A stretch of 64,000 nucleotides of DNA from the NCBI RefSeq assembly GCF_036588685.1, contig NC_086381.1:32364001-32428000 (forward strand), in the 5' to 3' direction. Position 1 is the first letter of the stretch, and the number at the start of each line of letters is the position of its first letter. Below are positions 12,701 through 58,262 of the stretch, piece after piece. Made by a program: the position numbers and the translations under genes. The stretch is from Mytilus trossulus (Eukaryota). The notes below the pieces were generated by a model. It was given only the letters and a program-made list of their open reading frames with translations, was not told the origin of the DNA and did no database searches.

Positions 12701-15700
12701 ATTGGTATTTAAATACATGTAACATCATATAACCCCTAAACTTAGTAATGTGAGGCGCATGGCCGTTATTTACCTTTAGGAAACGTCATTAAACCATCTT
12801 CAGGTTTGTAGTAGTCATCAAATATCAAAACGCTTACTGCCCCACCTTTGCAATATTTTCTGTTCTCCGTACATTCCCTACAATAATGTTTGAAATATGT
12901 CATAAAGGGTTATTTTTTTGTAATAAGAATCAGTTAACAATCAATATGCATATGTACTTGAATTATTGAGTTTGTAATGATGTCAATGTTTTCTAACCAC
13001 GAAAAGAATATCAAAATTAAATTGTAGTGTTGTAATTATTTTTCGTTTTTTTTCTCTTAAAAAACAGTGTATAAAAAAAAAAAATCCGGCGCATACTAAG
13101 ACTATCTAATGAAAAAAAACGGTATCATTTTTAAAGAATTCTATATAGATATTATTTATATTGAAACTCATTTTATCCATTTTTATTTTATATTAATGTG
13201 CATTGGATGATAGTCATGCAGTAGTTTACATAAGAGGAAACGATGGTTGTCCGTCGGAAGGGGACGATAAATGGCTGACCCGTGTTATTAGAGAGCCATA
13301 TCTCTTGCACGTTTAAGACACCCTTGTAGATTTCGGAAAAGAACAGGCTAATGCCGCTACAAGGCAGCACTCGCACTCGGAAAGTGAAAAGGTATTAATA
13401 TAAGTTTCAAAAAACTTGTTTCCCAATCCACTATAAATAAATATGTTTAAACTTAACTAGTAATTTACAGTTGTCTCTTCTGATCTCAAAATAGTCCTGC
13501 GGAAATCAATACAATTTTACTCATGATAAATCATTTTTTTAGTAGTTAATAAAAAATGTTTTGTTAATTGAATACATATTTTGTTTTTAAAAATGTCCAG
13601 ACTGAAATATCTTACCATGGTCGATGACTTGCATTATCTTCAAGTTCTTCACAAAAACTTAAAGCTGCATGATGTACATATTCATGATTAATTTCAATTA
13701 AGGTGCTCACTGAAAGGTATAAAATCATTTACATAATAGTAATTGAGGTCTGTAATTGAAATTTTGGAGTTTATTTGAATGTATACGGTGACGAAACTTG
13801 GTCTCAAGATGTTAATTTGATGGATAATATAGGACCAACATCAACATTATTTTTCATTCTAAAGCAAAACTAATTTGGCGATCCTTTCAAGTATAGTTGA
13901 CATTAGACAGATTAAATCATTTGCCCGAGAAAGGCCATTTTATGTGTAATCATTAATTTGATAACTGCCATTTTTGTTTAAATTGTTTGCTCGAGAAATC
14001 CCATATCTGGCTACTGACATTATTCTTGGGAATACCAAGTAATTTTCAATAGGAACGTTGCAAGCATCCATATGATTATTTTGAAAAGGTGAACAAATCT
14101 ATTGTATTGAAACTGAAGATGTATTTACTCGTGTCTTCAATGATATGCAGAACGTTATATTTTGACAATAATCAAGGATTTTGGTCATTTTTCCAATATA
14201 TTCTCGGCACCTCATCTATTGATCTAGTACTTACAGACATATACTTCGTCCAGTTCTTCTAAATATCTTGTGTAGCAAAAATATTGGTCGGGCTTCAAAA
14301 AAGGGTTAAATAATACAGTTAATCGTTATAGACGTAGACAGATACCAACGGAATGCAATTCGTTTCACAAAAAAAAACGTTAAGGTGGCTCGTGGGTACA
14401 AAAATTTTAGCAAAAAATTAAACCTTTATTTTGTCATTACAAATTTTATTTATTACACTTTTAGTTGTAACTTTATGATATGGTACAAAAAAACAACCCA
14501 AAAAATGATTTGGTTTGGCCCCAAATGATTTTAAAAATTGAAAAAGCTCCAAATTATCTCCCTTTGGTGCAAAAATGCCATTTTTTGGCCTTAAATTTGA
14601 AATATCTTTTTTAACTCATCGGTGACCTATATTTTTTATTATTATTTTCAAATTAGCTGTACATAAACTACATAATTGTAAAATTTAAGCGATTTCTTAT
14701 ATTAGATTATTTTTTTATTTCGATATTTCCTCTTTTTCTCCTATTAGTTCAACAGAAAAAAAGGACATTAACAAAAATGTATGCTTCTTCCAGAGGCAGA
14801 TTTTAGCTTAAATGAACGGTGACTCCATTTTTTTATTTCATTTTTTTTTTAAAGTATATGATAAAGTTCATTTATGAAAAAATATAGCGAAATCCTATAT
14901 TAGAAAAAAAAACAACATTTATACCCAGGAGCCCCCTTAAATGTACAAAATGTAGTAAGTCTTATCAAAATTTTAATATCATAAGTTATACTATGTGTGT
15001 TTCGCTACTGACCCCCTTCGGACCCAAATAGGGTTAGTAGAATCCCCATGAATTTAATTCACCCTCTATGGATACGTACGGGGTCAGTAGTTAACCTATA
15101 ACGAATTTATCGCACGCTAGACTTTATCTACTGCGTTTTGTTGAAAAATAAACAATGAAACACAACAACATCAATAAATGACGTCACCATTAACTCGTCT
15201 TGAACCCCCTATGAAATTTACTACCCCCTACGGTCTCATATGGTGTCACCACGTGACGGCATTTAACCATGCACAACGTGATAATTTACCCGGGGTGCGA
15301 TAATGTGAAATATGGACCTTAATCGCTAAGTGAATAAAAAAGGCAACAGTAGTATACCGCTGTTCAAAACTCATAAATCCATGGACAAAAAACAAAATCG
15401 GGGTAACAAACTAAAACCGAGGGAAACACATTAAATATAAGAGGAGAACAACGACATAACATTCAAATGTAACACACACAGATGTAAACTGTTATACATA
15501 TTTGAATTTGAAATTTTGAATACATCAAAAGGAAAATATTATATTTGAACTATAAATTTAGACTTTTATTTTTAGCAACGATATTTAATTAAATAAACTC
15601 ATCATAGATACCATAATTGAAATTTTATATTTGCACCTGACGCGCGTTTCGTCTTCAAAAGACGCATCAGTGACGCTCAACTAAAAAAATGTCAAAACGG

Positions 15701-17294
15701 ACAAACAAAGAACGAAGGTGAAGAGTATTGTTTCGACATATCTTGTATAACGTTTAACCCTTCTAAAGATCGTAAGTAGGATAGAAATGAGATTCTAAAT
15801 TCACACCTGTGAGAAAATAATCACAATCTTATCAATAGATATAGTTTTAAAAGACACCTTGTCCATTGTAAACTATTGTTGAATTCATCATAGATATACT
15901 TAATATTTAATTTAAGAGTAAGAATGGGCAAAATTGTTACTAGCGCAATGTCAGGTACCCTATGAAAATTATATTACGGATAATTGGCTTTTTAATAATA
16001 ACCATCTCGATAAAGGCTGAGCTTTATACCTAAGTAAGGCTTCTGAATACGTGCATGTTAGTACTTTCATTTCTTCAACCCTTTCATGTTGTTTTGCAGA
16101 CATTATTTTTAGTTGTCCGAACCAGTTTGCATATATTAACATAATAATAATGAAAGATGTGGTATGATTTCTTATAATAAAACTCTCCACCATGGAACAA
16201 TGGAATTGAATTAACAATGATAGGTCATCGTACGGGCTTCAATATTAAGCGAAATCATCTGAAATACCAACGTTACCCCTTGACAGTTGCGTTCTCTGTC
16301 ATTGAATGGGTTCCTGGCCTGATTTGATGATATCAAGCTAGTAAGTTAAGTTTAATTATCAAGTGACAATCGTCTTTAAATATGTCAGAATGTTGTTTTC
16401 TTAGCTGTTGAAACGAATTAACTGTAGGCCAAACACCTTTTATTGTGCACTGCTGTTTTATAATTATATTTTGGAAGAATAATGAGGTTTTGATTTTGCC
16501 ATTTGAACAGGGACCTTCAATTTAGATTTTTTTCTTGGGAGTTCCGTATTTTTTATATTTAATTCTTACACATAACGACAAAGAAAGTTCAAACGTATCA
16601 TATTTTTAATCGTTAAAACAAAGTAGTACCTACTTCATATATCTTGATAGATGGGTATGATAGCTTCATTTTATAAACTTCTTGTCCATTCTCTCCATAA
16701 TGAGCTGTTATATATGGTATCTCCCTCACACCTGATACTACAAACAAATTAGATAATGATTTGACAAGCCGAGGTTTGACAGAATTTAGAAATGTTTTAT
16801 CTGAGACAATGGTATGAATACTTTTGACCAGACGTTTCAAGAAAAATATAGTCTAAGATTCAAACCAACATATTATTTCAAACAAAATAAAAGACATTAT
16901 TCTATAATTCATCGCTTTAGAATTTAGACTATCTGTAAAATTATTGTTTTTTCGGCTATGCCGCTTGTGTGCAAAATTTCCTTCAGTATAACGTGGCTAG
17001 ATTCCAAAATGTTCACCTGATAAGTTACAGCTATGTAATTTTCTTCGGTTTTATCGGGAATTGAATTTAGTAAATAGTAAATGAAATACAATTAGAGTCA
17101 GAAAACAACTTCTGAAACTCAATAGATGTAAATATAAAACCATGCGACGGACACTTAAATTTTTTTATTCACCCTAGGCTAAGCCCTATTCTGTATATAC
17201 ATGATTATGCTGGGCTTGAAATAAAAATTATGTATTATTAGAAATTCTTACCTGCAACAGGTAGAACAAAAAGCCACATAGCGAATTTATTCAT
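6717..17294 (-). CDS. Secreted PHM-like copper type II ascorbate-dependent monooxygenase, paralog A (13 exons, 345 aa)
   Basis: Exons 17294-17252, 16737-16634, 14292-14235, 13709-13616, 12877-12774, 12148-12071, 11418-11370, 10887-10820, 10133-10053, 9740-9661, 8253-8200, 7751-7702, 6891-6717. All introns GT-AG, phases compatible, 1038 nt, no internal stop. Signal peptide MNKFAMWLFVLPVAVSG, then PDQYFC, YVHHAALSFC, FEMH, AFAVQLHTHHYG, YRVRNGTWTL, GDVLAAKC, EMCN. These align with rat PHM DTYFC, TVHHMLLFGC, LQVH, FAYRVHTHHLG, YRVRNGQWTL, GDILAARC, EMCN. AATAAA on the minus strand at 6615-6620. Confidence 0.92.
8400..8565. repeat. Representative copy of the abundant AAGAAGATGTGGTATGATTGCCAATGAGACAAC interspersed repeat
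   Basis: Related copies near 1720-1990, 7890-8080, 10365, 12325-12620, 26010, 31375, 33185, 38100, 44520, 45060, 53150 and 53608. Confidence 0.8.
13225..13450 (+). mobile_element. SINE body fragment (conserved central-domain type) in a PHM-like A intron
   Basis: GTCCGTCGGAAGGGGACGATAAATGG..GCACGTTTAAGACACCC..GAAAAGAACAGG resembles Deu/Meta-type SINE cores; no tRNA head visible. Confidence 0.4.
14384..14936. mobile_element. Non-autonomous TTAA-targeting DNA transposon (Kolobok-like) in a PHM-like A intron
   Basis: TTAA on both sides; imperfect TIRs GGTGGCTCGTGGGTACAAA and TTTATACCCAGGAGCCCCC. Confidence 0.65.
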
Positions 17295-18548
17295 ATTTAG
17301 ATAGTCTGACCAAACGTTCAGTTTAACCAATATGAAATGTTTGAAAAATATTGTTTTCTTTAATACGTTCTGGAAAATGAGTTTCGAGAAATGCGCATCC
17401 TTTTTTTTGATACGCAAAAACTGAAAACAATACAGGACACGAATTAAATCATTGTTTACCTTAGATACAAATGTGATAAAAATAGAACATGAAAACGAGA
17501 ACATCAACAATAAACAAATTCATCAATGTCAAACTTACGAAATAAGTTACGACTACGATAGCATGTTGTTAGGGGAGACTCTGTTGTATTAGAAAATATG
17601 ATAGCTCTCACGTTATAGTTTCTAATTCTGGTATACATGATATATAATCGTTTCGGTTCAATTAATATTTTAGAAACAATATATTAAAGATTTCAATAAG
17701 AAAAAAAACCCTTCAGACATAGATTGGGATTAGAACTATTTATGTTCGATATTACATATCGAGCACCTTTTAATTTGCAATATTGTTTTCGGCTAAATTG
17801 TAGCACCCAAGTCTGAATTGATCACAGCTTAATGAGCACAAAATATAAGAAACAAATTAAACACTAAACAAAAACTGTGTGTTGAAATGTCACGAATACA
17901 ATAAAAGTACTTTACCCAAATCATCGACTAACTACATAGCTTTATTTATGTTCATATACAGTATTTTCGAATAATAAAAAAAAGATGACAATGCTGTCCT
18001 GAACTAGATACTAGTTTTGGTAGGCCTTATACATACTGTTTTGCAGATACAAAAAGTTATTGCGATGAAAACGGCAGTTGGAGCTATAGCTATCTGTACC
18101 ATGTTATATTGGACAAAATACAAAAGCGGGAAACTACATGCTCAGGCGAAATAACCTTTAGACTTTTAAATACAGTTGTCAAAAAGTATTATTATCACAT
18201 GTCTTAAAATGTTAGATTAATTATCATACTTAAGAACATTGTCCGGTAACTAGGATGTCGGTTGTTGTCAACAACAGTAAAAAGGGAAGTCGTTTATGAT
18301 TGTAAACAAAAACAACACCAAGCAATAAATCAAAGCTTTACTATTTCGTAGAACCATACGATTAAAATTTCACAGAAATACTTAAACACCTTATGTGTAA
18401 TTTATCATCATGTTTATATCCGTATTTTTTCGGTCGAAACTTTGTATATATAGGTATAAACTTTACCATTATTGTTCATAATCAACATATCAAGACAAAC
18501 AGTGTATTGTGACTGATTTAACATTGCTTTTTCTCTACTGTCTCTACT
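17295..18548. promoter_or_regulatory. Divergent (head-to-head) intergenic region shared by PHM-like A and the prepropeptide gene
   Basis: ATG at 17294 (-) and ATG at 18549 (+) point away from each other about 1.25 kb apart; TATAAA at 18455 for the + gene. Confidence 0.55.
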
Positions 18549-21500
18549 ATGTCTACCATGAATTCCAGATCACTACTTCGTTTTTGTTCCATTCTAATTT
18601 GTAAGTATATTTTGACTGTCTTTTTCCATGATTACTAATAAAAATAGAAAAAATACAAATTAAAAGAAAAAATAATAATAAAAAAAATGTTTATGTTATC
18701 TAAAATACTCTGAAAGTTTATTTTTTATTTTTATATCAGTTACTCTCTTTTACTAATACAATTTTTTCTATGTCATATATTTTACTGTTTTACAAATTTC
18801 TACTGATCCTTTCTTGCAAATCCTTATGATGATAATACTTTTCCAATTAACGAAGTTGTACCACACAGCGTATTCCGTTTCGATATTTGTGGAAGGATCC
18901 AAATCCAACGGAGCTTTAAAAGTTTGTAAGAGTGGGTATTCTAAATCTTTAACATTACCCCGTAACGTAACTCCTCCGTTAGAATCGTATCCAGCTTTTA
19001 AGTAACCATCGTTACAAACTTTTGATTGATTGATCTTAGGGGTAGGGATATAGAAACACCCAGTGAGCTATCTCAGTGTAACTGTTACATTTCAAACGGT
19101 AATGTTAAATAATTGTATAGGTCTTTCTGTAAACGCACACAATTGCCTGTCACTGCTTTATGCATTTAGCTACAACACCTCGTTATTGTGTATAATTATA
19201 TATAAGGATTTATATTTCTTTGCTTAATATTGCCATTGTAGTAGCAAGTATTCATGGTCACCTCTTTTAGAAGTCTATCTTTTAAAAAACTGAAAACAAA
19301 TCTAATTAGGTCCTATTTTGTAACTAAATTAAAACAAAACGAAGATGTGTTATGACCGATAATAAAGCAACATTCAACAAGAAACTAACAATGAGTAGAG
19401 TAAATACCTTTTTCGTGAACTCACTTATGATCCCTGACTTTTTATAGGTTAGACAATACTTGGTCATGTTTTATGAAGATCCAGACCAAGGCGAAGCCAA
19501 GGGCTTAAATCTTCATAAAACATGACCACGTATTGTCTGACCAATTTAGAACATATTCACACTTTCGAGTGACCTTTCACAATTATACTTTCCCATTGTA
19601 ATAGTCAAACGTAAATAAGAGTTCACTTTTTATAATGAATTAAATGTAAAACATAGGTACTGATCATTTCTATGGATGAAATGAAATAGCACTCGTTTTA
19701 CTTCTGCTTCAGGTGAAATTTAATACTTATATATATTTATATTTTTTTATTTTAAAAAACAACACAATGTTATATGAATCCCCTTTTTATTTTTTTTATT
19801 TTTTTATAAATATAAAACTCTCTTTGTGAATTTTTGAATTCAGACCATTCAACATTAAATCCTTACTTTTTATTGATAAATTTAAATGTATTATGTTTCT
19901 CCGATAACAATCCTTTGCTTTATATATCAGCAGTCTAGCATTGTGTTTTTTTTTTAATGTAAGGTATATAAATTAAATAAATATCATTTTATTTATCCTT
20001 ACCATTTTTTTTGTGTATTCTATATATGTGTACTATAAGAAAATGCATGAAATTTTCCAAAATTCAAAATATTTTTTATTTTAATCTTTGCTCTTTCATC
20101 TTTAATGGATTTGTAGACTATTTTCCCAATGATATTGCTTTAGGGGATTGTAACCTTCGTTAGTGCAGTTCATAATTAACTGACAATGAAAAGTCATACA
20201 TGTATAACATTTCATAGTGCATAGAAAACCATGTACTATGAAAATTAGAGAAAAAAAAAACCCTGACTTTTCATTGGACGAGAAGGGATGAGTATGTTCT
20301 AATAAATGATAATGTTTGGGCGTTTCCAAATAAGAGTTCTCAAGACAAAACGGTAAAAACGAACAAAATTATAAAACGATTATTTCATTTAGTAGCACTG
20401 GTACTGGTGCGGCATCGGTTTCTTTTCAAAATATTAAGAAATCATCTATAAACTAAGGTCAATTTCCATCAGGCAAGCATGGCCGTATTTCAATTTCTAT
20501 CCTTTTTTTGGTCATATAGCTCAAAACAATTTACGAATATATGCATTCCTGGCGTATAAATGTTTAGGTTTAGGCGTTCCTAATTAGAAAAATCGACAAA
20601 ACTCTTTTTCTTTTATAAAATTAGTACTTTTTAATTTTTTTAAGATAACTCATACATACATATCATATGTATAAATATAACAGCAATTTAAGATTTGGAC
20701 TCAAAGTTTGAAATGGAAGTTTCGTACTTGAATTTATATATTAGGGACATATTCTGAATAGTTCTTGTTCATCATTATTTTAACCGTTATTGTAATCTTC
20801 TATTTTTTCAATCAGATAACAGATAATTGAATGTTTAAGTTATTAACCAGTACACAGTCTTTTTAGTAATGACTAATATTTCCAAATATGGATCTGCAAA
20901 CTTTAATTAAACATTTTTTTTTTAAAGTTTACCATAGCATGTGACGGTATATTCATACTAAATATTTACAACATTTATTATCAGGCTATATTTTTTTCAG
21001 TTGTTATACTTGCTGTTAACTCTGTTCCCCTGAGTTCAGAATATGATTTAAGGGAAAAGAGAGAAGCTGTTCCGTCCGTTAAAGCCGTTAACGTAGATTT
21101 GGAAGATGGTTTGAGAAAGAAACGTGAAGCTGTACCGTCTGTCAAAGCCGTCAACGTCGACTTAGAAGATGGTTTGAGAAAGAAACGTGAAGCTGTACCG
21201 TCAGTCAAAGCCGTCAATGTAGACTTAGAGGATGGTTTGAGAAAGAAACGTGAAGCTGTACCGTCTGTCAAAGCCGTCAACGTCGACTTAGAAGATGGTT
21301 TGAGAAAGAAACGTGAAGCTGTACCGTCAGTCAAAGCCGTCAATGTAGACTTAGAAGATGGTTTGAGAAAGAAACGTGAAGCTGTACCGTCTGTCAAAGC
21401 CGTCAACGTCGACTTAGAAGATGGTTTGAGAAAGAAACGTGAAGCTGTACCGTCAGTCAAAGCCGTCAATGTAGACTTAGAAGATGGTTTGAGAAAGAAA

Positions 21501-22124
21501 CGTGAAGCTGTACCATCTGTCAAAGCCGTCAACGTCGACTTAGAAGATGGTTTGAGAAAGAAACGTGAAGCTGTACCGTCAGTCAAAGCCGTCAATGTAG
21601 ACTTAGAAGATGGTTTGAGAAAGAAACGTGAAGCTGTACCGTCAGTCAAAGCCATCAACGTCGATTTAGAAGATGGTTTGAGAAAGAAACGTGAAGCTGT
21701 ACCATCTGTCAAAGCCGTCAACGTCGATTTAGAAGATGGTTTGAGAAAGAAACGTGAAGCTGTACCGTCTGTCAAAGCCGTCAACGTCGATTTAGAAGAT
21801 GGTTTGAGAAAGAAACGTGAAGCTGTACCGTCAGTCAAAGCCGTCAACGTTGATTTAGAAGATGGTTTGAGAAAGAAACGTGAAGCTGTACCGTCAGTCA
21901 AAGCCGTCAACGTTGATTTAGAAGATGGTTTGAGAAAGAAACGTGAAGCTGTACCGTCAGTCAAAGCCGTCAACGTCGATTTAGAAGATGGTTTGAGAAA
22001 GAAACGTGAAGCTGTACCGTCAGTCAAAGCCGTCAATGTCGATTTAGAAGATGGTTTGAGAAAGAAACGTGAAGCTGTACCGTCAGTCAAAGCCGTTAAT
22101 GTCGATTTAGAAGATGGTTTGTGA
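18549..22124 (+). CDS. Secreted multi-copy prepropeptide (2 exons, 391 aa): signal peptide plus 17 x EAVPSVKAVNVDLEDGL separated by R-K/E-K-R convertase sites
   Basis: Exon 1 18549-18600 (ATG to phase-1 donor GTAAGT at 18601), 2400-bp intron, acceptor TTTTTTTCAG ending at 21000, exon 2 21001-22124 in frame with the 63-bp repeat ORF. Spliced N-terminus MSTMNSRSLLRFCSILIFVILAVNS-VPLSSEYDLREKR-EAVPSV... TATAAA at 18455-18460; AATAAA at about 22439 and 22464. Confidence 0.88.
19447..19542. repeat. Inverted-repeat hairpin in the prepropeptide intron
   Basis: 34-bp arms GGTTAGACAATACTTGGTCATGTTTTATGAAGAT and ATCTTCATAAAACATGACCACGTATTGTCTGACC around GGCGAAGCC. Confidence 0.65.
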
Positions 22125-23770
22125 AAAAAGCGTGAAGCCGAAATATTTTAATCGTCTAGTGCGGAATGTGAACAAATGAGCGTACATGAAGCTTTGTAAT
22201 ACAGACATGATTATGTATATAAATGTACGTATACGTTTCAATACTTGTGGTCTCGTTTATTTTATTTATTCATTACGACAGCATGCGTTTGTTTTCGTAA
22301 TATATTGTCTTCATTTTGATTTGTTGATTGTCTTTGTTTTGTAAAAGATTGCTTGTTATATAAAAATTATATTCTTTGTTTTTTGTATATTTATCTATTA
22401 TAAAAGTCAACCATAAGAGTTCATTGAAAAAAAAATCAAATAAAATCACGCTAAGAAAGTTTTAATAAATTTGTTATCTACGTGTATATTACTAAAATAA
22501 AGAGGTCCAATTTGTCAGCCGGTATGACTTTATAAACGACGAAACAAATAATTCAACTTTTCATATACCTTATATAGGACAATGGCGTTGGATAAACATA
22601 ACATCATTCCAGGCCTTTTTGTTTTACAAATAAATAATATTTTAAACAACTGACAAGTTCCGGGGAGATGGTTTCATACATAATAATTCTGAAAGCAGGG
22701 AAAACTGAACACCTTATAAAAAGCATTAATTTATCAGATGACAATACGAATACTAAAAGCACAGGCTAGAAATAAGGCATTGGTACTTTGATTCAGTAAC
22801 TGACCTGCGAGGTCGAGGGAATGTGCTAGTACTTTCTATATATTCAAATAAAATAAGGAAAAAATACTATTATATAAGAATAACCGAGATATGGGATGTT
22901 TTGTCCCTATTTTTTCAACAAGTAAATTTGAGGAATTTTTTCGTAAACAGTTAAACTTTGTTATCATTGTCTAATCATTCTTTGAATAAGACCAAGCCCA
23001 TTATACTTATCACCGGGGTTATATTTAAATGAGCAACACGACGGATGTCACAAATGGAACACAATCTCCTTTCCCTACCGAAGCACATAAAATGACCCCG
23101 GTTTTTGTCGGGGTTCATGTTTTGTATACCTTTTCTTTCTTTACCAGTGCATTGTCAGTTTATCTACGACTTACAAGTTTAAACGACCCTTTTAGTATTC
23201 TTTAATCACAAAAATAGATATTTATAAAAAAAAAAAAAGGGGTCATATCAGATTTACTCAAGCAGACGGATATTAACTCTATACTCCATCACTTATAATT
23301 TCTGTATCTAATTTCTTCACGAAAATCAAATGCTGATCTTAAACCATGATAAGATGCCACGATTAGGTGAAGTTGGCCTCACACGTGTATGTTGTTGTCA
23401 AATGATATTATCATTCAGATGCAGAAAACCTATTTCTCACAAAAGCTGAAAAACAAATCTTGTTTTCAAAAAAGTTATATTCCAGTCATTTTCTCATTTG
23501 CACTACATTTTTAGACACAGAATACAGACATGTACAAGATATAAACTTATAACTAAACGTTCCTAGCTGCATGCCACCACCCATACCCTTTAAATATAAA
23601 GATTTGTACAGAAGGTTCACACAAGAGTCTATTGCCTTCGAACTATCATCGCAATTTGCTTGATTAAAATTGAGTATAATTGACAGGGAAAAAAAGAAAT
23701 GGAGATAAAAATGTAGGAAAGATGGAAGTAACTGTCAATACAATCATCATAGATACCAGGACTAGTATAT

Positions 23771-23814
23771 ACGCCAGACGCGCGTTTCGTCTTCAAAAGA
23801 CTCATCAGTGACGC
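23771..23814 (-). ncRNA. Minimal type I hammerhead ribozyme, second family
   Basis: Minus strand reads GCGUCA CUGAUGA GUC-UUUUGAA-GAC GAAA CGCGCG UC UGGCGU. Degenerate copies at 15633-15676 (CUGAUGC) and 37953-37996 (CUUAUAA). Confidence 0.85.
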
Positions 23815-24079
23815 TCGAATCCCAAAAAGTTAAAAACGCCAAATAAAGTACAAAGTTGAAGAGCAATTGAGGACCAAAATTCGCACAAGTTTTGCAAAAT
23901 ACAGCTTAGGTATTTACAGATGTTTTGCTTACAGAAATGAGAACATCTTATTTAAAGAAAAAAGATTTGCAATTTATTGCGAAATAACAGTTAGACCTGT
24001 TCTAAGGAATACATTAAATCATATGCTAATTAAAGCAACTCTATTAATTTAACATTACATACAAGTAAATAAACTGACT

Positions 24080-24910
24080 ATAGTCTAGTCTATTCGTGCA
24101 GATTTTTTACAAAATTGCCTTGATTGTGGTAGAAGCATGACTTTTGGCATTATAGTAGTATATATCATGGACAACATTTTAAGCTATGGACCTAACCTGA
24201 AAATCGAAAATGGCGGAAGAAGCGGCCATTTTAAAACGGCGGCCGTTTGATCTCAATAGATTAATAATAAAATATAATATGAAATGATATTAGAGAAGAT
24301 ATTGACATGAATTTTGGTTAATAGAATAACAGTGTGAATCCAATTGTCTTGTAGAACAAAGTTTTTGGGAATATTACCTATATTGAATGGCGGCCATCTT
24401 GAGAATGATTTTTTTACATAGAATAACAAATATACGTACAAATAAAGCAAGAACATATTTTTATACTTGTCGTTTATAATAGTTGGCTAATTACTGGATA
24501 ATTCGTTTTGTTGATATTGTTCATTTGAGACAACTTTCAAAAACCTTGATTGCAGACATAATACATTTTATATCATACAAGTAATATTATAAGATAATCA
24601 ACTGCTCAAATCTTCACAATTGACGTTTACATTATCTCACAGTAAATGAAATATACATGTTTTGTCAAACCACACTCTGTTTATCATATTCTATCACATT
24701 GTCCTCCACATTAACATAGAGTAGTACAACTTAATACTGCCTTTACACATTTGCATTTCTTTAGTATCCATGTTCACTTTAACTTATAAGTTAAGCGCTT
24801 GCTTCAGGAAATTATTATATAGTCATATGGTATATTCATCACAAATGATAAGGACATATATATTGATTTTTAGGTTGCCATTTTGAATGATGGCCATTTT
24901 GAAAGCACGA
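24080..24910 (-). mobile_element. DNA transposon relic with C-terminal Cys-rich zinc-finger remnant (Academ-like)
   Basis: Minus strand 24684-24810 reads PEASA..KCKCVKAVLSCTTLC*CGGQC; repeated AAAATGGCGGC-type subterminal motifs; TAG-starting end. Confidence 0.45.
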
Positions 24911-26816
24911 ATATCCAATATTTCATTATTCGTTAATCTAATAATTCACTGTTTGCATTCGTAGTTTTTTTTACTAATTTATATTAGATATTCACAAAGA
25001 GGTCAGATAAGGCATGCACATGTTTACAAAATTAAGATATCAGTATCAACATTTCTGTTACTTACACGTTTGCTTAAGTTACTTTTTAAAACAGAAATGA
25101 AGTATATATTATATATTTTATGACCGAAAATGTTTTTTTGGAAAAGGTGAAAATTGTCGATATCAGAAAAACGTAATGGGCAATAAGACTGGAAGGAATG
25201 TGTGAAACGGCAAAAGAGGACATGGAAGGGTTTGCAATGCCGACCAGATACACACAGAACAGTCATAGACATTTGCGCTGGCAATAAGGTCATGTTTTAA
25301 CTTTTTCTATTACTTGTACATGCTGATCCTTGGCATATTGGCAAGAGATTTACACCAAATTACAACTTGCAATTTGTCGTAACTGGACATTTTTTCTACG
25401 AAGTTGTACGCTTCAATAAAACATTTAATTGGAGTTTTCTACTCTCAAATGTTTACCAATAAGATGTTTGGTCGATATATGAATGGATAACAAATATCAT
25501 ATACAACAAAAAACGATAACCCCTCCAGGCTACAAAACATGTGAAAGTCATACTGTTTATGATAGAAGCAATTACCTGATCAGATACAAAATATATATAT
25601 CAACAAATAAAGGCAACAATAGTATACCGCTGTTCAAAACTCATAAATCCAGGGACAAAAAACAAAATCGGGGTAACAAACTAAAACCGAGGGAAACGCA
25701 TTAAATATAAGAGGAGAACAACGACCGAACACTGAAATGAACACACACAGAGGAGGACCAAGCACTAGACAAAATCCCACGAGAACAACAAATATCGACA
25801 AGTACCGTGACACGTCTTATCGCAATTTGAATTTTCACTCAAAAATAAGAGAAAACAAACGACGCAACGTCAAAATGTAAAACACACAGAAACGAATAAT
25901 AATATAACAATGAACACAGACAAAATTGTTCTATCATAATTATGATATTAGTTGATTACTCTCAACTATATTTGAAATCGTTTGTTTGTTGTTGTTCGAA
26001 TAATATATAAAAAGAAGATGTGACATAAGTGCTGAGGAGACAACTCACCAAAAGAGACGGCATAGTTATAAAAGGCCCCGAAATGACAATGAAAAAAATT
26101 TAAACGAGAAAACTGACAATTACCATGCATACATATTACTCATTGTCATGGTTTGGCTTAACATATGGTCATTTTTGGTTTTATCAGCTTTTAAACACTT
26201 GTTTTTGGTTATCTGACAATTGCAGATAACAGCAAGACAATAAAAATCAAAACTAAGGACATAAAGACTCATACAACCAAACCACATTTACATCAACAGT
26301 TATAAAAGATAAATAAGAATCAACATGAACTCCACTAAAAACCAGGAGTAAAATCAGGTGCTCCGGAAGGATAAGCATTTCCTGCACCGTATACGGCACC
26401 CGTCGTGTTATTTCTTTGGTATGTTCGGTAATGATGGAGGGTTATAATGACCGAGGAAGAATATCAGATATGATTGCTTTTCCTAGATTTTGATATTTCA
26501 GTTTTGCATTGTGTAGGACAAAAATCAATTAGTGTAGTCTATGTATAAGTTGAGATTTCGTTACATCAAATTGCGCAAAACCTCACAGGAGGGTTGATCT
26601 CTGCCAAGCATGCTTATCCCGATCACATTATTAATGTGCCTCCCAGTGATATCACACTACTGTAAATGAAACTACTTTAATAAACAGAATAAAAAGAAGC
26701 GTCACATTTGAGTGTCATTAAGTCACAAGACACATATTTGATAAAATGACGCAACGAAGGTCGTTAAATTTATGAGTCATTACGTCATTGGACACAGATT
26801 GTAGACAATATAGATC

Positions 26817-27415
26817 AACACAGACTTGAGAGTCATGATGTCAACACCGACTTGTGAGTCATGATGTCAACACCGACTTGTGAGTCATGATGTCAACACA
26901 GACTTGTGAGTCATGATGTCAACACAGACTCAGAGTCATGATGTCAACACAGACTCAGAGTCATGATGTCAACACAGACTTGAGAGTCATGATGTCAACA
27001 CAGACTTGAGAGTCATGATGTCAACACAGACTTGTGAGTCATGATGTCAACACAGACTTGTGAGTCATGATGTCAACACAGACTCAGAGTCATGATGTCA
27101 ACACAGACTCAGAGTCATGATGTCAACACAGACTTGAGAGTCATGATGTCAACACAGACTTGTGAGTCATGATGTCAACACAGACTTGTGAGTCATGATG
27201 TCAACACAGACTCAGAGTCATGATGTCAACACAGACTCAGAGTCATGATGTCAACACAGCCTTGAGAGTCATGATGTCAACACAGACTTGTGAGTCATGA
27301 TGTCAACACAGCCTTGAGAGTCATGATGTCAACACAGACTCAGAGTCATGATGTCAACACAGACGCAGAGTCATGATGTCAACACAGACTTGAGAGTCAT
27401 GATGTCAACACAGAC
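26817..27415. repeat. 25-26-bp minisatellite, about 23 copies
   Basis: ACACAGACT(TGA/TGT/CA)GAGTCATGATGTCA units. Confidence 0.95.
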
Positions 27416-28169
27416 ACAGATTTGTGGAAAGGATAGAAACAAAGCGCCATACATTTAAGTGTAATGACGTCAATTGACACAGATCTGAAGCTTTAGGCAA
27501 GATACAGATTTGAGGCCGAAATTTTATATGTCTCAAATGATAAATAGGAAGAAAATGTGTCAAATCTAGATACTGTACAATTGTTTGCATTCATCTTTCT
27601 TAATCAGAACCAATTATAACTATACCATTACCAGTTATTCTGTAGCAGTTCATAAACTTATCTTCATGGAGCTTGTTTTAAGGTTCCCAAACATATTAGT
27701 TTTTACTAAATGCTTTCTCTAAAATATATCAAAATGACCTTCAAAGTTGAACAAAGGGCTTAAATTAAATATAATTGAACTGCAAAATTTAACACTATGA
27801 ATATTAAGAGTACAATGGAAGAAAAGATTTAACGAAAATTATTACCATTGACTGCTACATACATGTCTTCCTGTGAACAATTATCTGTTAAGATTGTATA
27901 TTATAAATTAAACCCAGAGTGTTGGTCAAGAACAAAGCTGGCTACATCTAAAGTTTAGTAACATATCGTCCTAAACATGCATTTGATATTTCCTATTGGA
28001 CAATAAGAAGGCTACAGACTTGTTTTACCCCAAGAAAATGCTTTAAGTGGAATTGTACAGTTAAAAATATTCATCTTGCGTATTGTCGTAGTATGAACAG
28101 TGCCACACATAATGGATACATATAATACTCCGTCAACTTTTAATTGTGAATATTCGACGTTTAGATATG

Positions 28170-39303: not shown

Positions 39304-41637
39304 ATTTGTATCAATCGTTCTCCGAATAAACTTTCAGACCACATTTATTTGATACATAAGAAAGCGATCGTAGTACGATTCGTGTTTTATTTGAAAATAG
39401 TTAATGTGAATTAGACCTAATTCGCTATTAGACACATCCCCGCGAAATGTTATTTTCTCGCTGATTGGATATTCATGTCTTTGATATTGTCATTTAGATC
39501 CTATTCGTTATTTATAAGAATTTTTATGAAAGCTATCATTTACATAAAAATAGACTAACTGAAATGTTAGAAGGATTACAAAGGCTCATTCTGTTACCAA
39601 ATAATTTTCATGTTATTTGTTTTTGTTTAGAAGAATCATTGATAAAACTAAACTTTTCGGTGGATAGTTGCCCGTTGGCAATCATACAACATTTCCTTAT
39701 TTACATATTCTATAAAAATATATTACAAATCAGTCAGTGGCGCGCGGAAGTCCTCAAGAAGACAGTATTTTTTTTCGGGTGCTGACAGGATACACATAAT
39801 CGTTATTAGTTTAAACTTCAGGATACTTATGCAAGCAAATTTTATAAACAATTATTTTTTACGTTTTTGTATGTTTTTACTTTAAATTGGGCTTTATCGC
39901 TGATCTTGTTTCTGGGTGCAAAATTGTGGTTTTACATATTTCACCTTTAGCAATATTAGGATAACTGTTTGAACGATTCCATATATTATGTTTTAGGTTA
40001 TTTTACATTCATTGTCTAGTTTATGTATATTATTAAGATGGTTGTCTGCGAGAAATTAAATCATTTTTCTAATAATGTAACTAAATTCGAAACCAATATA
40101 AACATAGTGAACATATATATTATATTTAACTGAGTAATTTTATCAGAATGGGAATGACAACATACACCTAAAATTCATTTTGGCCTACCCCGTTTACACA
40201 TGATATTTGCACGGTAATTTCTTCCATTGACCAACATAATTTAAGTTGGATTATGGCAATGATATATAAATTGTGTTTTGATGTAATGTGATAGGATTTA
40301 ATGTGATATGCTTTGCTTCTTCTCCTACAGTACATTATTTGACATCAGGTTTGTACACATTAAAAGTCTCTAGTCTAGTCAGAGCTGAAGTACAGCTAGC
40401 ATATCCCATCATATAATTTCAACCAACAAATACAACTGATTTACACTACAATTGTTGAACTATATAAATATATATATACCAGGTGGTCGTGTGGTCTAGC
40501 GGGACGGCTGCAGTGCAGGCGATTTGGTGTCACGATATCACAGTAGCATGGGTTCGAATCCCGGCGAGGGAAGAACCAAAAATTTGCGAAAGCAAATTTA
40601 CAGATCTAACATTGTTGGGTTGATGTTTAGACGAGTTGTATATACATTATGTACACAGCCATGTATCACCATCATTGATGGCGATCCGATGGATACATCT
40701 GTTGTAGGGTTGTCACTGACTCAGACGTACTTATGAATATAATTATTTTCTGTGACTGTATCTTACATTAATTTGTAGGATCCTTTACTATAGATAATTT
40801 AGCTGATCTGTAACAATAACATCTTCATGCCTTATATATCATGTACTGTAGTACGCCGCTAGATTAAAACTGACGTGGAAAGGTAACATATGGCCACCGA
40901 AAGCTCTTTTTTTGAGAGCCCAGGTGGTCGTGTGGTCTAGCGGGACGGCTGCAGTGCAGGCGATTTGGTGTCACGATATCACAGTAGCATGGGTTCGAAT
41001 CCCGGCGAGGGAAGAACCATAAATTTGCGAAAGCAAATTTACAGATCTAACATTGTTGGGTTGATGTTTAGACGAGTTGTATATACATTATATACACAGC
41101 CATGTATCACCATCATTGATGGCGATCCGATGGATACATCTGTTGTAGGGTTGTCACTGACTCAGACGTACTTATGAATATAATTATTTTCTGTGACTGT
41201 ATCTTACATTAATTTGTAGGATCCTTTACTATAGATAATTTAGCTGATCTGTAACAATAACATCTTCATGCCTTATATATCATGTACTGTAGTACGCCGC
41301 TAGATTAAAACTGACGTGGAAAGGTAACATATGGCCACCGAAAGCTCTTTTTTTGAGAGCCCAGGTGGTCGTGTGGTCTAGCGGGACGGCTGCAGTGCAG
41401 GCGATTTGGTGTCACGATATCACAGTAGCATGGGTTCGAATCCCGGCGAGGGAAGAACCAAAAATTTGCGAAAGCAAATTTATAATTCTAACATTGTTGG
41501 GTTGATGTTTAGACGAGTTGTATATATATATATATATATATATTAATTTATTAAATGTCATTCCAGTCCCTTCAACTAGCACAATTAATGAAATCGGTGT
41601 AGATTTTGCAAAGATGATGGACAGTGGCGGATCCAGG
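39304..41637 (+). repeat. Local segmental duplication, copy 1 (direct repeat of 58263-59490, interrupted by the 441-bp array)
   Basis: Near-identical from ATTTGTATCAATCGTT to CAGTGGCGGATCCAGG; duplicate spurious ORFs at 39564 and 58523. Confidence 0.9.
40479..41520 (+). mobile_element. tRNA-headed tandem element (441-bp unit, about 2.4 copies) inserted in a (TA)n microsatellite
   Basis: Units start at 40479, 40920 and 41361. A-box-like TGGTCGTGTGG and perfect B box GGTTCGAATCC. TA runs on both sides. Absent from the paralogous segment at about 59390. Confidence 0.75.
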
Positions 41638-45449: not shown

Positions 45450-45992
45450 CACATCATATAATGACGTTTCGACATCATATAATGAAGTAAACCTAACCAT
45501 ATAATATAAGATTACAAGCACATAATATAATGACACAACCACATCATATAAAGATGTTTGCACGTAATATAAGGGAAACTGCACATCATATAAGGATATG
45601 TACACACCATATAAAGATCTTTGCATATCATATAAGGATCTTTGCACATAATATAAGTACATTTGCACATCATGTAATAATGTTTGCACATCATATAAGA
45701 ATGTTTGCACATCATATAAGTATATTTGCACATCATATAAGTATATTTGTACATCATATAAGTATATTTGCACATCATATGAGTATATATGTACATCATA
45801 TAAGTATGTTTGCATATACTGTAATGATATTTGCACAACCTATAAGGATATTTGCACATCATATAAGGATATTTGCACATCATGTAGAGGTGTTTGCACA
45901 TAATATAATGACAAGTGCATATCATATAAAGGTAAAAGCACAGCATATAAAGGTAAATGCACATCATATAAAGGTAAATGCACATCATATAA
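45450..45992. repeat. Degenerate 21-bp minisatellite
   Basis: TTTGCACATCATATAAG(T/G)ATA units; explains the overlapping heptad ORFs at 45363-46033. Confidence 0.9.
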
Positions 45993-49793: not shown

Positions 49794-50009
49794 GAGTACA
49801 CGATTAGTTAAGAATAAAAAGAGTACACGATTAGTTAAGAATAAAAAGAGTACACGATTAGTTAAGAATAAAAAGAGTACACGATTAGTTAAGAATAAAA
49901 AGAGTATACGATTAGTTAAGAATAAAAAGAGTACACGATTAGTTAAGAATAAAAAGAGTACACGATTAGTTAAGAATAAAAAGAGTACACGATTAGTTAA
50001 GAATAAAAA
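49794..50009. repeat. 27-bp minisatellite, 8 copies
   Basis: GAGTACACGATTAGTTAAGAATAAAAA x8. Confidence 0.95.
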
Positions 50010-52079: not shown

Positions 52080-55000
52080 TCAATATTCCAAGATTCTTTT
52101 TTCACACAAAAATGCTCCTTTATAGGTTAACCATAGATCATGCCATTTATAGCCATCATATCTTTTCATACCAATGATTTCGTCAACCTGATGTAAAGTC
52201 TTTTCAGGCTGAGTTGGGTGCCAATTAAAATAAGACATAATTGACCCATCGTTATAGTACCAATGTAACTCGTCTGTACGATGATATCCTTGGAACAAAA
52301 TCCATGTTGTAATTTGGAACTGATCTACAAAATTAAAACAACGACAGCAGTAATTTACAAAATGTATTTGTTTCGTGTTTTGTTTTTGATTTATTGTTCC
52401 TATTGTATCAAATAATGCATTTATATCAGTAGACACATTCTCTGTCTATGTATCCTGTCTCGCTCCATTTTTCAATTAACTGACCTGTTTCCCTTAAGGT
52501 AAATTAACAGCAAATGTATTTTCAACGAAAAACTACAGTCATCTCTTATGATCCATTCTTTTATTGGGTCTTATTGACATAAGTCTATTTATATACATTA
52601 AACAGAATATTGACTATTTATTTGTCATTCGGACGTCAAAACTGATTTAACATTTAAGAAGGAAATGTTTAGAATTAAATTAGTTTTTGGTTTGTTTTCT
52701 AAACAGTAGAACTAGACAGGAACCCGGTTTAAAATGACATATGTTTGAAAATAATAATGTTATATGTAGCGAAATTGATTCCGTTAATGTTATTTCTGTT
52801 TGCTAATTGTTTTTGTTTAATCAGTTTTTACCGGTTGTTGGATTGATGATAGTTGTTACAATAATTAACTCGTTTATTAGAAACAAAATAAAAACAACAC
52901 ACATGTTTTTTAAATACTGGAATTATAATGGTGATGGGGGTTAAACTTAATACAATATTATATTTTAGGATCAATTTTACATTCCTCAGTTGTATTTGCA
53001 GTAAATCCAAATGCATACATAGTTATTTAATATTGTGGATACAGATCAAGACAGATCGAACGTAATAGAGAAGAATAAAATATTTCGAATTATTATTCAT
53101 GAAAAAAAAAATTTATCCGAATAATAATGATCTATTTTTGAATAGATATAGCAAGATGTGGTAAGAGTGCCAATGAGAAAACTCCCCATCCAAGTCACAA
53201 TATGTAAAAGAAAACCATTATAGGTCAAAGTACGGTATTCAACATGTAGCCTCGGCCTACACTGAACAGCAAGGTATAAAGGACCCCGAAAATGACAAAT
53301 TCAAACTGGAAAACCAACGGTCTAATCTATATAAAAACGAGAAACAGCGAGAAACACTTATGAACCACATCAACAAACGACAACCACTAAAGAACAAGTT
53401 CCTGACTAAGGACAGGTGGGTGCAAACAAATGCAACGGGTTTAAACTTTTTAACAGGCGCCATTCTTTACCCTAACTTGAAATAATAATGTAACATCACA
53501 ACATAGAAAGACACACTATAAAATATCAATTGAAATGGCTTAACTCAATCAAAAAACAGATTTACAAAAACAAGTAAACATACTCTGAACGAATAAAATT
53601 TGATCTATATAAAAAAGAAGATGTGGTATGATTGCCAATGAGACAACTATCCACAAAAGACCAAAATGACACAAACATTAACAATTATAGGTCACTGTAC
53701 GGTCTTCAACAATGAGCAAAGCCCATACCGCATATAGTCAGCTATAAAAGGCCCCGAAAAGACAATGTAAAACAATTTAAGCGAGAAAACTAACGGCCTT
53801 ATTTATGTAAAAAAATGAACGAAAAACAAATATGTAACACTTTAACAAACGACAACCACTGAATTACAGGCTCCTGACTTTGGACAGGCACATACATAAA
53901 TAATGTGGCGGGGTTAAACATGTTAGCGGGATCCCAACCCTTCCCCTAACCTGCGATAGTGGTATAACAGTACAACATAAGAACGAACTATAGAAATCAG
54001 TTGAAAAAGGCTTAACTCATCAGATAGACAAAAAATAAAAGTGGACGTGGCCGTGTACTTGTACATCCCGACACAAAAAGACCCAATGAACAGATCTGAG
54101 AGTACTCGCAGCTATTTGACAGCTAGTTCAAAGCCATAAACAACTAATAAAAAAATCATGCCTCTAAGACTTAGCAATCAATCCGTACACATCCAATATA
54201 CAATGGATTTAGTGTAAAGACGTCATACACAGCCAGAGAAAAACATGAACTTGTGCAATGCCAAGTTACAGGTGTCGACAGCTTGTAGATGCATGAAAAT
54301 GTATATGTATATAACATACTAGTAATATTTAGTTAGCTTTTAATCTTCTTATAACAAAGTCAATATTTATACCAATAAAACAATATTCAATGATCTTATC
54401 ACAGTGTTGAATAGGTAACTTTTAAGAATAAGTTTATTTAAAGGAGCAACAAGTTTACATGGATCATTTCTAAATTTCAGGGCACGGTTAACAACATTTC
54501 CGTAAAAATGAGGATGTGCTATCCCGTTTGAAATAAGTTTTCTACAGGTACAATCAAACTTCAAAACCAAATCTTTATATCTATGGAAAAATTAAGTAAA
54601 GGTTTTAAGTAATTTATGGTAACGATATCCCTGGTTTAATAATTTATCAGTAATACATAGGTTACGTTCGTTAAAATCAAAAACGTCACAACAGACATGG
54701 GCATAGCGAACAAGTTGTGAAATATAAACACCGTAAGATGGTGCCAAAGGAACATCACCATTTAAAAATGGAAAATTAACAATAGGGAACGAAAAATCGT
54801 CTCTTTTGTCGTAAATTTTAGTGTGTAGTTTCCCGTTTAAAACCGAAATATCTAAATCCAGGAAAGGACAGTTATTACCGAATACATTTGATTTATTAAA
54901 AGTAAGTTCCTTGGGGTAAATTTCAGCAGTATATTGAGAAAATTCTTGATAATTTAACGAAAAAATATCATCAAGATAACGGTAAGTGTTGTTGAATTTA

Positions 55001-58000
55001 TCAATTAAATGCAATTTCGACGGGTCTTTACTGAGTTTAGTCATAAACTGTGATTCGTAACAGTACAAAAACAAGTATGCTATTAAAGGGGCACAATTAG
55101 TGGCCATGGGGATACCTACAACCTGTCGATAAACTTTGTTGCCGAAACGTACGTTAACATTAACAAGGAGAATATTAACAGCCTCAATCATCTCATCACA
55201 CCTCCAGTAAGTATATCTAGCATATTTAGCTTTCTCATTAGAGAAGAACAATGCAAATAAAAAATTAATAAAAAAACAACTTGTAATAGATATTATGTAA
55301 TAAAATATTTGGATTGATACGGATTAAACTATTGGTCTACCTTTATCAAAGCATAAATATGAAACTTATAGAAAAGATACATAACATGAATTTAAAAAAG
55401 ATAAACTTTTGAGTTTTATAACCAATAACTAGAAAAAGTTTAAGAATTTAGAAACTTCAACACTATAAATGTTGTATTTTCTTTTTATTATGTCGAACTG
55501 ATAAGAGACAGTGTGATAGATTTTAGGGAAGACGATTCAATTACTTCATGGTCTAGAAGGTGGGAATCGATTTATCACGGTTTGAAAACAAAATATTTTC
55601 AAACGGGTGAAAAAAGAAGATATTGAACCAAGTTTTCTTTTTAAAAAATACAAACCAAGAAAATCTGTAATATGTTGTTGTTTCTTCTCTGAATCAATTT
55701 TCATAAGTTCACCTCCTTCATTTCCACAGAAAGGACTATAATCAGCATATGATAAGGAAGCGTTTTCCGGTTGGAGCTTGTAGCAACTGTTAAATATTTT
55801 GCTATACACATAGCCAGATTCTCTGGAACAGCGTTCTAATAAAGGAAAAACACAATATGTTTTACACATTTACGTGTTTATACTGTCGCCTCAATTTAAA
55901 CACTAGTTTAACAAAAATAAAAAAATAAAAAAATTCAGGTTACTGCAAATTCAGAAATAATGCGTGCATTTATGATTGTGAATCATTGATTACTGGTAAA
56001 TATGCGCAGTCTAAATAATGCGATTGCAAACATTTTTTGAAGGAAAATTACTACTGAAATTTGAATGTCTCATTGTTTGCATCATTATAAACTTGCAATG
56101 GATTTTGAACTTACAGTTTTCAAATTTATTCAGGAAAATACTGCAATGAGACGAAAAAATATAATGTTTTGCATAAAAGAGACATGTTTACTAGTAAAAT
56201 TAATACAATTGTTGTTTGCAAATATTACCCCCCTCAAAAACTTTATTGAAGCCTACTGCTCCATTACTGATAATAGTCAAAGTTAGGACAACAATAAAAC
56301 CTGCTTGAGATCTGGAGCTGACATGTCAGTAACTGGTAGTAGTCCTGTGTTAATTTATGTATCATTGTAACTTTGCTAAGTTTCTTTTGTTACCTATTCT
56401 GACATCGGACTTAGACTTCTTTTTAACTGAGTTTTACTTCTCTTGCCTTTATGCTTTTTAATTGGTGTTTATTTATATGTTTTAGAATTTAGTGTGACGT
56501 CCATTTTCACTGAACCAGTACACATTTTTATTTAGGGGCCAGCTGAAGCCGGCCTGCTGGTGCAGGATTTTCTCGCTGTATTGAAGATCCATTGGTGGCT
56601 TGCGGATGTTATCTTGATAGATAACTGTATGTCCATACAAATGTACATACATAAAGGATATTTAGTAAGAATCAATGTTACCTTTCTTATTAAAACTCAA
56701 AGTATGTCCCTTATCATGACATAGAACAGTTGCAGTTGTTGGGGAAGCCAGGAGCGGTTATTTCTATTTTCCCTTGAAGAAATATTTTACATGCTAGGTT
56801 TGAATATAGCTGTCTTGGATGTATGAAAGTTATATATCTATGTTTAAATCATATTTAATCAAATGAATGTTGATTTTATTTAATTGTGCTTATGTAGTAG
56901 ATGAAATTGTATATTCAAGAATTCAATAATTGATTACTGAACAGAAAATAGTTATAAGTTCGATGAGCTAAAGGTGTGTATAAAAGGTAAATATTTGAAA
57001 TACAAAATGACTAAATCAAAGTATTGTTACCGGAGTGTCAACTTATCACATTACCTTATTTTACCTTTTGATACAAATGGGATTTAGTTTTGTAATGGTA
57101 AATTTGATATACGTTAAGGCCGTATAATGTGAACATGCACGACAGCAACATTTAGTTGAGATATACGGTGGATAAATGGCTATATCACTGCTAATTAATG
57201 GGAATTTGTGTTGCTTATATTTATATCGACGTAATTCAGACTCTTAAAGATGATTATATTTTGGGCAATTATACCACATCCACTTATTTCTATATTGCTG
57301 AGCGAGTCCAACCACACTTGGTAGTGTTAGTTAGTTCAGCAGTTTTGCATAGAAATTCATCTCTCAGGCAAAGTGTTACAATCGGGAATAGAACACATTC
57401 GATAAAAGGACAGATTATGCGACTATTTGAGTATCTGAAGATCAAAGGCTGGGAAATCATAGCACTATCAAGTTAATACATAGACATACTGTATCGGTCA
57501 ACCAATTTTTGATGGGGTCGATTTCAGTCGTTTTTCCACATTATGATATTCGAACAGCTATAATCAACTAACTATAGGTCATCATACAACCTTCAACAAT
57601 GAACAAAGCTTATAACGTATAGTCAGTTATATGATTTGTCGGAAAACAATTATATTAAGTCTTCAATATACCACGTTTGAAGCAGACTAACAAAAAGGAC
57701 TTTATCTGAACAATTATTTCCATTTATGCTTGACCTTCCTTTTTATCGTCTTTTTTGGCAAGTTCTCTTATGTCATTTCCATTGGAATAGTTATATTGTG
57801 TTCTTACTTAAATGATTGTATACAATACAGCAGAGTATGTCGACAAAAAACCCTAACACATATTCAGATACTTCCTACTTAAATACCGAATTTAACAAAC
57901 GTTTCTTACCGTCTAAAATCAAATAATAGTTCCACCCAGCAACACGCTGACCTAATGCTGAAGGTCTCTTTATGTATCCAGTGTTAATGCAAATACACTT

Positions 58001-58204
58001 TTGAGCAGGTCCATTGTAGAACATAGACATAGACTCATCCATAATAGCACAATGCGATGTGCATGCAGCAAGGCTTCCATGAGCAAATGGATAAAAAGGT
58101 TCATCGATGAACCAGTCTTTCAAATGTACTTGATTTTCTCCTTTGAGGACAGCTGTACCCTCCAACCGAGGAAAGAAAATCAAATTGAGGCTAAATAATA
58201 GCAT
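52080..58204 (-). CDS. Secreted PAN/apple-like plus C-type lectin domain protein (3 exons, about 239 aa)
   Basis: Exons 58204-57910, 55835-55656, 52324-52080 joined by phase-1 GT-AG introns. Exon 1: CTSHCAIMDESMSMFYN...KCIC (PAN-like). Exons 2-3: CSRESGY..SCYKL..C..EGGELMKIDS..WILFQG..FNWHPTQPE..KWHD..AFLCE (C-type lectin domain). Alternative in-frame ATG at 58303. Confidence 0.8.
53608..55251 (-). mobile_element. 5'-truncated Penelope-like retroelement (RT C-terminal part plus 3' tail) in lectin intron 2
   Basis: ORF 54592-55251: YRQVVGIPMATNCAPLIA, RYLDDIF, FLDLDI, IYDKRDDFSFPIVNFPFL, YGVYISQLVRY. Continues in another frame at 54367-54570. The tail merges with the abundant AAGAAGATGTGGTATGATTGCCAATGAGACAAC repeat. 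Confidence 0.8.
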
Positions 58205-58262
58205 TATTGTGCTTTTTTCTAAAATCCCTTTTTTAAAAAGCTGAATCAAGGTAAATGTTATG

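Follow-up and report, generated by a model that had tools for sequence, protein, structure and literature searches.

A two-exon gene in Mytilus trossulus encodes a tandem peptide array

The window is the whole 64,000-nucleotide stretch analysed here (Mytilus trossulus, contig NC_086381.1, positions 32,364,001 to 32,428,000, forward strand). Its plus strand carries a two-exon gene with coding sequence at 18549–18600 and 21001–22124, separated by a GT-AG intron. The computed translation of the spliced frame comprised 391 codons plus a stop, with no internal stops. Exon 1 contributes 52 coding nucleotides and ends in phase 1; the donor GTAAGT begins at 18601 and the acceptor AG occupies 20999–21000. 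Exon 2 is a 405-codon open frame that ends with TGA at 22122–22124. A further in-frame ATG at 18558 is the start common to three of the four other gene copies (L022 and both diverged copies, see below). The features of the locus are as follows, where X1, X2, X6 and X9 denote sequencing runs.

18455–18460, plus strand: candidate TATA box (TATAAA), read from the sequence; one X2 contig starts 28 bases further on, at 18488, although contigs cannot show transcription starts
18488–18600, plus strand: exon 1, comprising the 5' UTR and 52 coding bases from the ATG at 18549, which encode the first part of the predicted signal peptide; covered in X1, X2 and X6
18601–21000, plus strand: phase-1 GT-AG intron of 2400 bases, skipped in contigs of three of four runs (X1, X2 and X6; not X9)
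21001–21023, plus strand: remainder of the predicted signal peptide, from hydropathy, with a putative cleavage site
21024–21062, plus strand: short pro-segment and first basic site (REKR, 21051–21062), from the translation
21063–22121, plus strand: 17 tandem 63-bp units, each encoding EAVPSVKAVNVDLEDGL followed by RKKR; the final unit lacks the linker and unit 10 carries V9I
22122–22124, plus strand: stop codon, located where a further linker would have its first Arg codon, with a linker remnant in the 3' UTR
22125–22501, plus strand: 3' UTR with AATAAA at 22439, 22464 and 22496; X1 and X2 contigs cover parts of it with 0–1 differences, and the 3' end is predicted

The N-terminal leader is hydrophobic, reaching a Kyte-Doolittle peak of 4.0 at residue 18, and is conserved in five gene copies. 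It is predicted to be a signal peptide, with cleavage placed by eye after Ser25. Downstream of the pro-segment, a tandem-repeat search delimited the array at about 21063–22138, with a 63-bp period, 17.1 copies and 95% matches. The 17 copies claimed in the original prediction were all present in the array, except that one departs from the shared sequence: 16/17 units encode an identical peptide and unit 10 carries V9I. Relative to the majority unit, codon differences among the window's 17 units comprised 38 synonymous changes, one V>I and one stop. Direct reading agreed with the earlier statement that Cys and aromatic residues are absent from the unit and that it does not end in Gly.

Several other features were observed in the window. 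A serum amyloid A (SAA)-like gene lies at 61235–63140 on the minus strand; its exon at 61235–61387 matched Pfam SAA over the cut-off (E = 1.3e-10), and its upstream exon encodes a hydrophobic leader plus an unusual Ser/Gly/Arg-rich extension. Frames at 52080–58303 (minus strand) looked by eye like exons of a PAN/C-type-lectin-like gene, with unconvincing Pfam results on single exons. A 243-codon frame at 54592–55323 (minus strand) resembled by eye a retroelement reverse-transcriptase fragment and had no Pfam match. A 441-bp unit is repeated 2.4 times at 40479–41536 with 98% identity, its start resembling by eye a tRNA-derived SINE head, and minisatellites occur at 26815–27420 (26 bp), 45495–45992 (21 bp) and 49794–50009 (27 bp).

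Paralogues and diverged copies

Two intact paralogues were found on C9, about 155 and 205 kb downstream of the window gene. The first, L021 (G000:C9:32534000–32543999), has 11 units. Outside the array it is ~95% identical to window positions 14937–24681, a figure that holds over 6 kb of upstream and intron sequence, and just 84–88% identical in the early 3' UTR. The ~95% identity could reflect either a recent duplication or an uncollapsed haplotype. The second, L022, has 53 units, and its identity to the window is about 71–74% in the exon 1 region and 3' UTR.

Two diverged copies, A and B, lie ~1.1 Mb away (L023:3214–7714, minus strand; G000:C9, about 31.306–31.311 Mb) and have exon 1 and the phase-1 intron in common with the window gene. 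The exon 1 sequence recurred at three other places in a DNA search and in a fifth copy identified by BLAST, and intron donor and phase were identical in L021, L022 and both diverged copies. One unit can still be recognised in copy A. Copy B has a frameshift, its repeats of the core lack basic linkers, and it contains a further run of short Val/Gln/Lys-rich repeats; it may be a pseudogene. It corresponds to XP_063401415.1, an uncharacterised Mytilus trossulus protein and the only named relative of the family. When the downstream frame of copy B was used as a query, many satellite-like arrays on C5 and C10 were retrieved, which we treated as compositional. A 1651-codon open frame ~6 kb from the diverged copies (L024:3906–8861, minus strand) looked by eye like an LTR-retrotransposon gag-pol.

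Transcription and splicing

Twenty-four sequencing runs were searched; the stretch or part of it was present in 20, with half of its words or more in six. Eight of the 24 (X1, X2, X6, X9, X11, X14, X21 and X23) were compared with the gene. The runs were guessed to be RNA, none being on record as such. Summed depth in wholly intronic bins was 0–48 versus thousands in exons, and these near-empty bins argue that the runs are spliced RNA.

The spliced precursor claimed in the original prediction is real. The 18600/21001 junction (GT..AG) was present in contigs of X1, X2 and X6, at contig depths of 2552, 3615 and 903, respectively, which represent three studies and organism labels A and B. The shorter side of the junction spanned 30, 28 and 43 letters in these runs, so only X6 meets a 31-letter bridge rule. 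The junction was not found in the contigs of X9, where array depth was merely 3–33. Runs X11 and X14, which carry labels C and D, covered the array plus a 3' UTR, with many differences from the window; by eye, these sequences resemble the L022 paralogue, and one X14 contig uses the 18600 donor. X21, from the same study as X6, yielded a single array contig of depth 6. In X23 (small-RNA raw reads, 13% read), 19 reads fitted partly, and the junction, start and end were not found among them.

Altogether, runs of four organism labels carried the array. The gap in signal between runs exceeded 100-fold, with the caveat that depth in contigs tracks expression poorly. This suggests that expression is restricted to a tissue, stage or condition, or that the gene is absent in some animals; X21, for example, could be without the gene rather than silent.

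The encoded peptide is under purifying selection

In the three intact genes, which together hold 81 units (17 + 11 + 53), pairwise pS was 0.313 and pN 0.011 on the 17-mer, giving a pN/pS of 0.034. Among distinct alleles of the 21-codon unit, 22 of the 44 synonymous changes that could occur were seen, versus 13 of 145 non-synonymous ones (binomial P = 7e-7, which ignores that the units are homogenised by repeat turnover and hence non-independent). The peptide is under purifying selection, and a synonymous bias of this size is not how a satellite behaves.

This bears on the extremely improbable explanation that the locus is a satellite with the look of coding sequence or a product of faulty assembly, or that a 388-codon antisense frame is the true gene. 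The antisense frame (20981–22147) is indeed open, and the near-identity of L021 over 6 kb upstream could come from an uncollapsed haplotype. Against this, the plus strand combines a GT-AG junction, a leader and the synonymous bias, and L022 is just 71–74% or so identical to the window in the exon 1 region and 3' UTR. With splicing and leader both on the plus strand, the antisense frame is best read as a shadow. For the window gene itself, the junction in contigs ruled out satellite, artefact and antisense origins.

Relatives in sequence databases

A HMMER search against 1.84 billion representative proteins returned nine hits. Read individually, P0001, P0002, P0003 and P0005 were relatives, whereas P0004 and P0006–P0009 were set aside as unrelated repeats. 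P0001 and P0002 are two frames of one 1400-base JGI contig, of which this genome has no close copy (best match here 68–75%). They differ from the unit at 5/17 positions, and keep the linkers, the 21-residue period, the EA-xP pattern and the K-x-V-N-V core.

Other searches found no further members. Exon 2 and an 83-residue piece gave no match as queries in word-indexed protein searches; a profile search among proteins of 29–100 residues recovered nothing beyond its inputs, P0001 and P0002; an Atlas search with P0003 gave no usable match; and a metagenome pattern scan returned five loci, each a single match without the unit. Pfam hits on the array (CENP-F_leu_zip and seven others) were rejected as sums over repeats, as none reached the cut-off on four units; one of the eight has stretches that pass on their own.

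The original prediction had recognised no molluscan neuropeptide family in the unit, and no described family came up in Pfam, the PDB, the literature and four neuropeptide catalogue supplements. A PDB sequence search with one unit returned no hits. Full-text literature searches with two exact motifs also returned none, in an index outside which most subscription papers and supplements lie, so that a mention in a proteome table is possible. Descriptive literature searches found no account of the gene in titles or the starts of abstracts. Motif searches did not find the unit in the accessible portions of the supplements of PMC6425005 (six files, two of them partial), PMC8398477, PMC8557429 and PMC5996578.

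Predicted processing of the precursor

The original prediction placed RKKR, as a furin-type site, before every unit. Convertase-type basic sites are indeed the rule, as the upstream linkers of 80/81 units read R-x-x-R, a furin-type preference; RKKR is not universal, and the window's first linker is REKR. The 81 linkers comprised 58 RKKR, 18 RKRR, two RRKR, two REKR and one RKKH. Save for this one R>H, substitutions were limited to the two middle positions, and the diverged linkers RKER and RRNR also keep the outer Arg. Retention of the outer Arg while the inner positions vary points to a furin-type site preference.

It is very unlikely that the product is instead a secreted, uncut polyampholyte in which the basic tetrads serve as charge blocks. 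Basic and acidic blocks do alternate along the chain, with a net charge of +1 per unit, and processing is predicted from sequence. However, REKR, RKER and RRNR lose charge yet keep R-x-x-R, and charge alone needs no outer Arg. In all three intact genes (window, L021 and L022), moreover, the stop codon falls where a further linker would begin with Arg, which fits cutting too.

With the stop placed there, the last residue of the final peptide is the very Leu that would become terminal in the other copies after carboxypeptidase trimming, which speaks for a 17-mer whose C-terminal Leu is free. We envisage that a signal peptide would be removed from a secreted repeat precursor, that a furin-type convertase would cut after each R-x-K/R-R to give 17 acidic 17-residue peptides, and that a carboxypeptidase E-type enzyme would strip the basic residues, leaving the Leu free. 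Taken jointly, these three steps very probably occur; furin-type cutting into the 17-mer is made likely by a pN/pS of ~0.03, the 80/81 linkers and the position of the stop. The proposal that loss of the last Leu might expose a substrate for amidation was not supported: the stop follows Leu directly in all three genes, and the variants have a hydrophobic residue there as well. In each of the 81 units the residue preceding the linker or stop is L or F, and Gly directly before a basic site or stop is absent.

The fate of the EA and VP dipeptides is less clear-cut. The alpha-factor-like code noted earlier held in part: the X-Ala-X-Pro pattern is whole in 76/81 units and present in P0001/P0002 (EA-LP), but broken in five units, which have ET or EV, in copy A (EI-VS) and in P0005 (ET-VS). 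The core is kept in both of the latter, and the pattern is also missing from the first unit of copy B. Retention of EA-xP in P0001 is weak evidence, given that 12/17 positions are kept anyway. Non-synonymous alleles numbered three in 8.7 sites over the first four residues versus seven in 30 over the core; on these small numbers the first four residues are no freer than the core and are not marked as a disposable spacer. DPPIV_N matches over the cut-off occurred at three genome loci, a domain that also takes in non-secretory and inactive relatives.

A dipeptidyl aminopeptidase may take off EA, then VP, to yield a 13-mer; otherwise the 17-mer would be the product. We judge this stepwise loss to have a chance slightly below even. 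The calculated masses are about 1755, 1555 and 1359 Da for the 17-, 15- and 13-mer, respectively. Glu1 did not vary among the 81 units, nor in the first unit of any diverged form, which suggests that the 17-mer itself may be the product. N-terminal pyroglutamate is possible on such a 17-mer.

Candidate functions of the released peptide

We tentatively favour, at slightly below even confidence, a bulk-secreted signalling ligand, pheromone- or hormone-like, cut from the furin-type repeat precursor. The peptide would act on a receptor, with the repeats raising output per transcript, a role to which we give somewhat less than an even chance. That 17 copies imply high-dose output, as first proposed, is a reasonable inference. 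Near-invariance across genes and four organism labels is a better fit to a receptor ligand than to the linear antimicrobial peptides of mussels, in which the mature region varies extremely (PMC5577615). Neuropeptides commonly have aromatic residues and an amide, and the lack of both in this peptide counts against the ligand reading. In yeast, the number of alpha-factor repeats varies and raises output, with the gain levelling off near six repeats (PMC5850478, in the part available); given this plateau, 17–53 repeats fit a bulk material at least as well.

The same cutting could therefore free a peptide that self-assembles or serves as matrix in mucus, byssus, shell or egg coat, an explanation that we regard as unlikely, though as a serious contender. 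Here, a nearly neutral, uncut precursor would stay soluble until cleavage released an acidic, beta-strand-prone peptide, and cutting would indeed shift net charge from +1 for the uncut 21-mer to -3 for the 17-mer. Every variant has hydrophobic residues in alternation at positions 9, 11 and 13, flanked by Lys7 on one side and by acidic residues on the other, and a chain of up to 53 units suggests bulk material. In the degenerate copy B the core is repeated with no basic linkers in between, a point weakened by its possible status as a pseudogene. An AlphaFold model of three units was helical rather than stranded, albeit at low confidence (pLDDT 70.5, pTM 0.30, no alignment). Mussel adhesives cross-link through Tyr, His and Cys chemistry, and the unit has none of these residues.

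A defence precursor of the apidaecin/hymenoptaecin type, freeing an anionic antimicrobial or immune-modulating peptide, is rather improbable. Insect multipeptide antimicrobial precursors share the plan (PMC3415428, excerpts), the family shows recent duplication and copy-number change, and the serum amyloid A gene lies ~40 kb away, although gene neighbourhood counts for little in animal genomes. The peptide itself argues the other way, being anionic (-3), small, devoid of Cys and aromatics and nearly invariant, in contrast to the cationic, hypervariable myticalins (PMC5577615, excerpts).

Returning to the signalling ligand, its boldest form, a waterborne mussel pheromone acting as a gamete attractant or as a spawning or settlement cue and matured by three enzymes as in alpha-factor, is distinctly improbable. 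Up to 53 copies per chain would offset dilution in seawater. The egg chemoattractants of M. galloprovincialis were still unidentified in 2017 (PMC6121861, in the part available). If the pheromone proposal were true, the peptide would be a synthesisable chemoattractant candidate and would matter for the control of spawning and for how hybridising mussels recognise gametes; if the peptide self-assembles, a cleavage-triggered material would be added to mussel biomaterials. More broadly, a strongly conserved and at times very abundant family of predicted secreted peptides has been missed by homology and domain annotation in a farmed, much-studied bivalve. Its predicted products of 13–17 residues are easy to synthesise, which opens direct tests of processing and function.

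Comparison with known multi-copy precursors

Precursors of FMRFamide, buccalin and pedal peptide/orcokinin are secreted and carry many short copies between basic sites. Compared with these molluscan multi-copy neuropeptides, the mussel unit lacks a Gly-basic amidation signal and an aromatic residue. Short, unamidated, exocrine peptides are known from sea urchins (sperm-activating peptides) and the cuttlefish reproductive tract, and the speract precursor is multi-copy.

The myticalins are likewise a Mytilus multigene family with a signal peptide, a convertase site and no Cys (PMC5577615, excerpts). As described there, however, each myticalin precursor yields one cationic, hypervariable mature peptide from three exons, with a different signal consensus, whereas the mussel array has many anionic, near-identical units and two exons. 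The myticalin plan of a single cationic peptide, a dibasic site and an anionic extension also differs from the 17 anionic units, of -3 each, found here.

Parallels in architecture come from Hymenoptera. Apidaecin and ant hymenoptaecin genes likewise hold all repeats in a single exon, with one intron near the start, and one ant has up to 23 repeats; the spacer after the basic site is EAEP or EANP in Hymenoptera and EAVP in the mussel (PMC3415428, excerpts). Hymenoptaecin units are 97 residues long and antibacterial, whereas the mussel unit has 13–17 residues, is anionic, comes from a different phylum and showed no detected homology.

Yeast alpha-factor (MFalpha1, processed by Kex2, Kex1 and a dipeptidyl aminopeptidase) similarly combines a signal, a pro-segment and tandem peptides behind basic sites with X-Ala/X-Pro (PMC3415428, excerpts). 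A sequence relationship to alpha-factor was not found, and the mussel precursors differ in having 11–53 units rather than 2–6, tetrabasic furin-type linkers and an acidic peptide. The mussel peptide family is real and apparently undescribed, built on a precursor plan that is already known.
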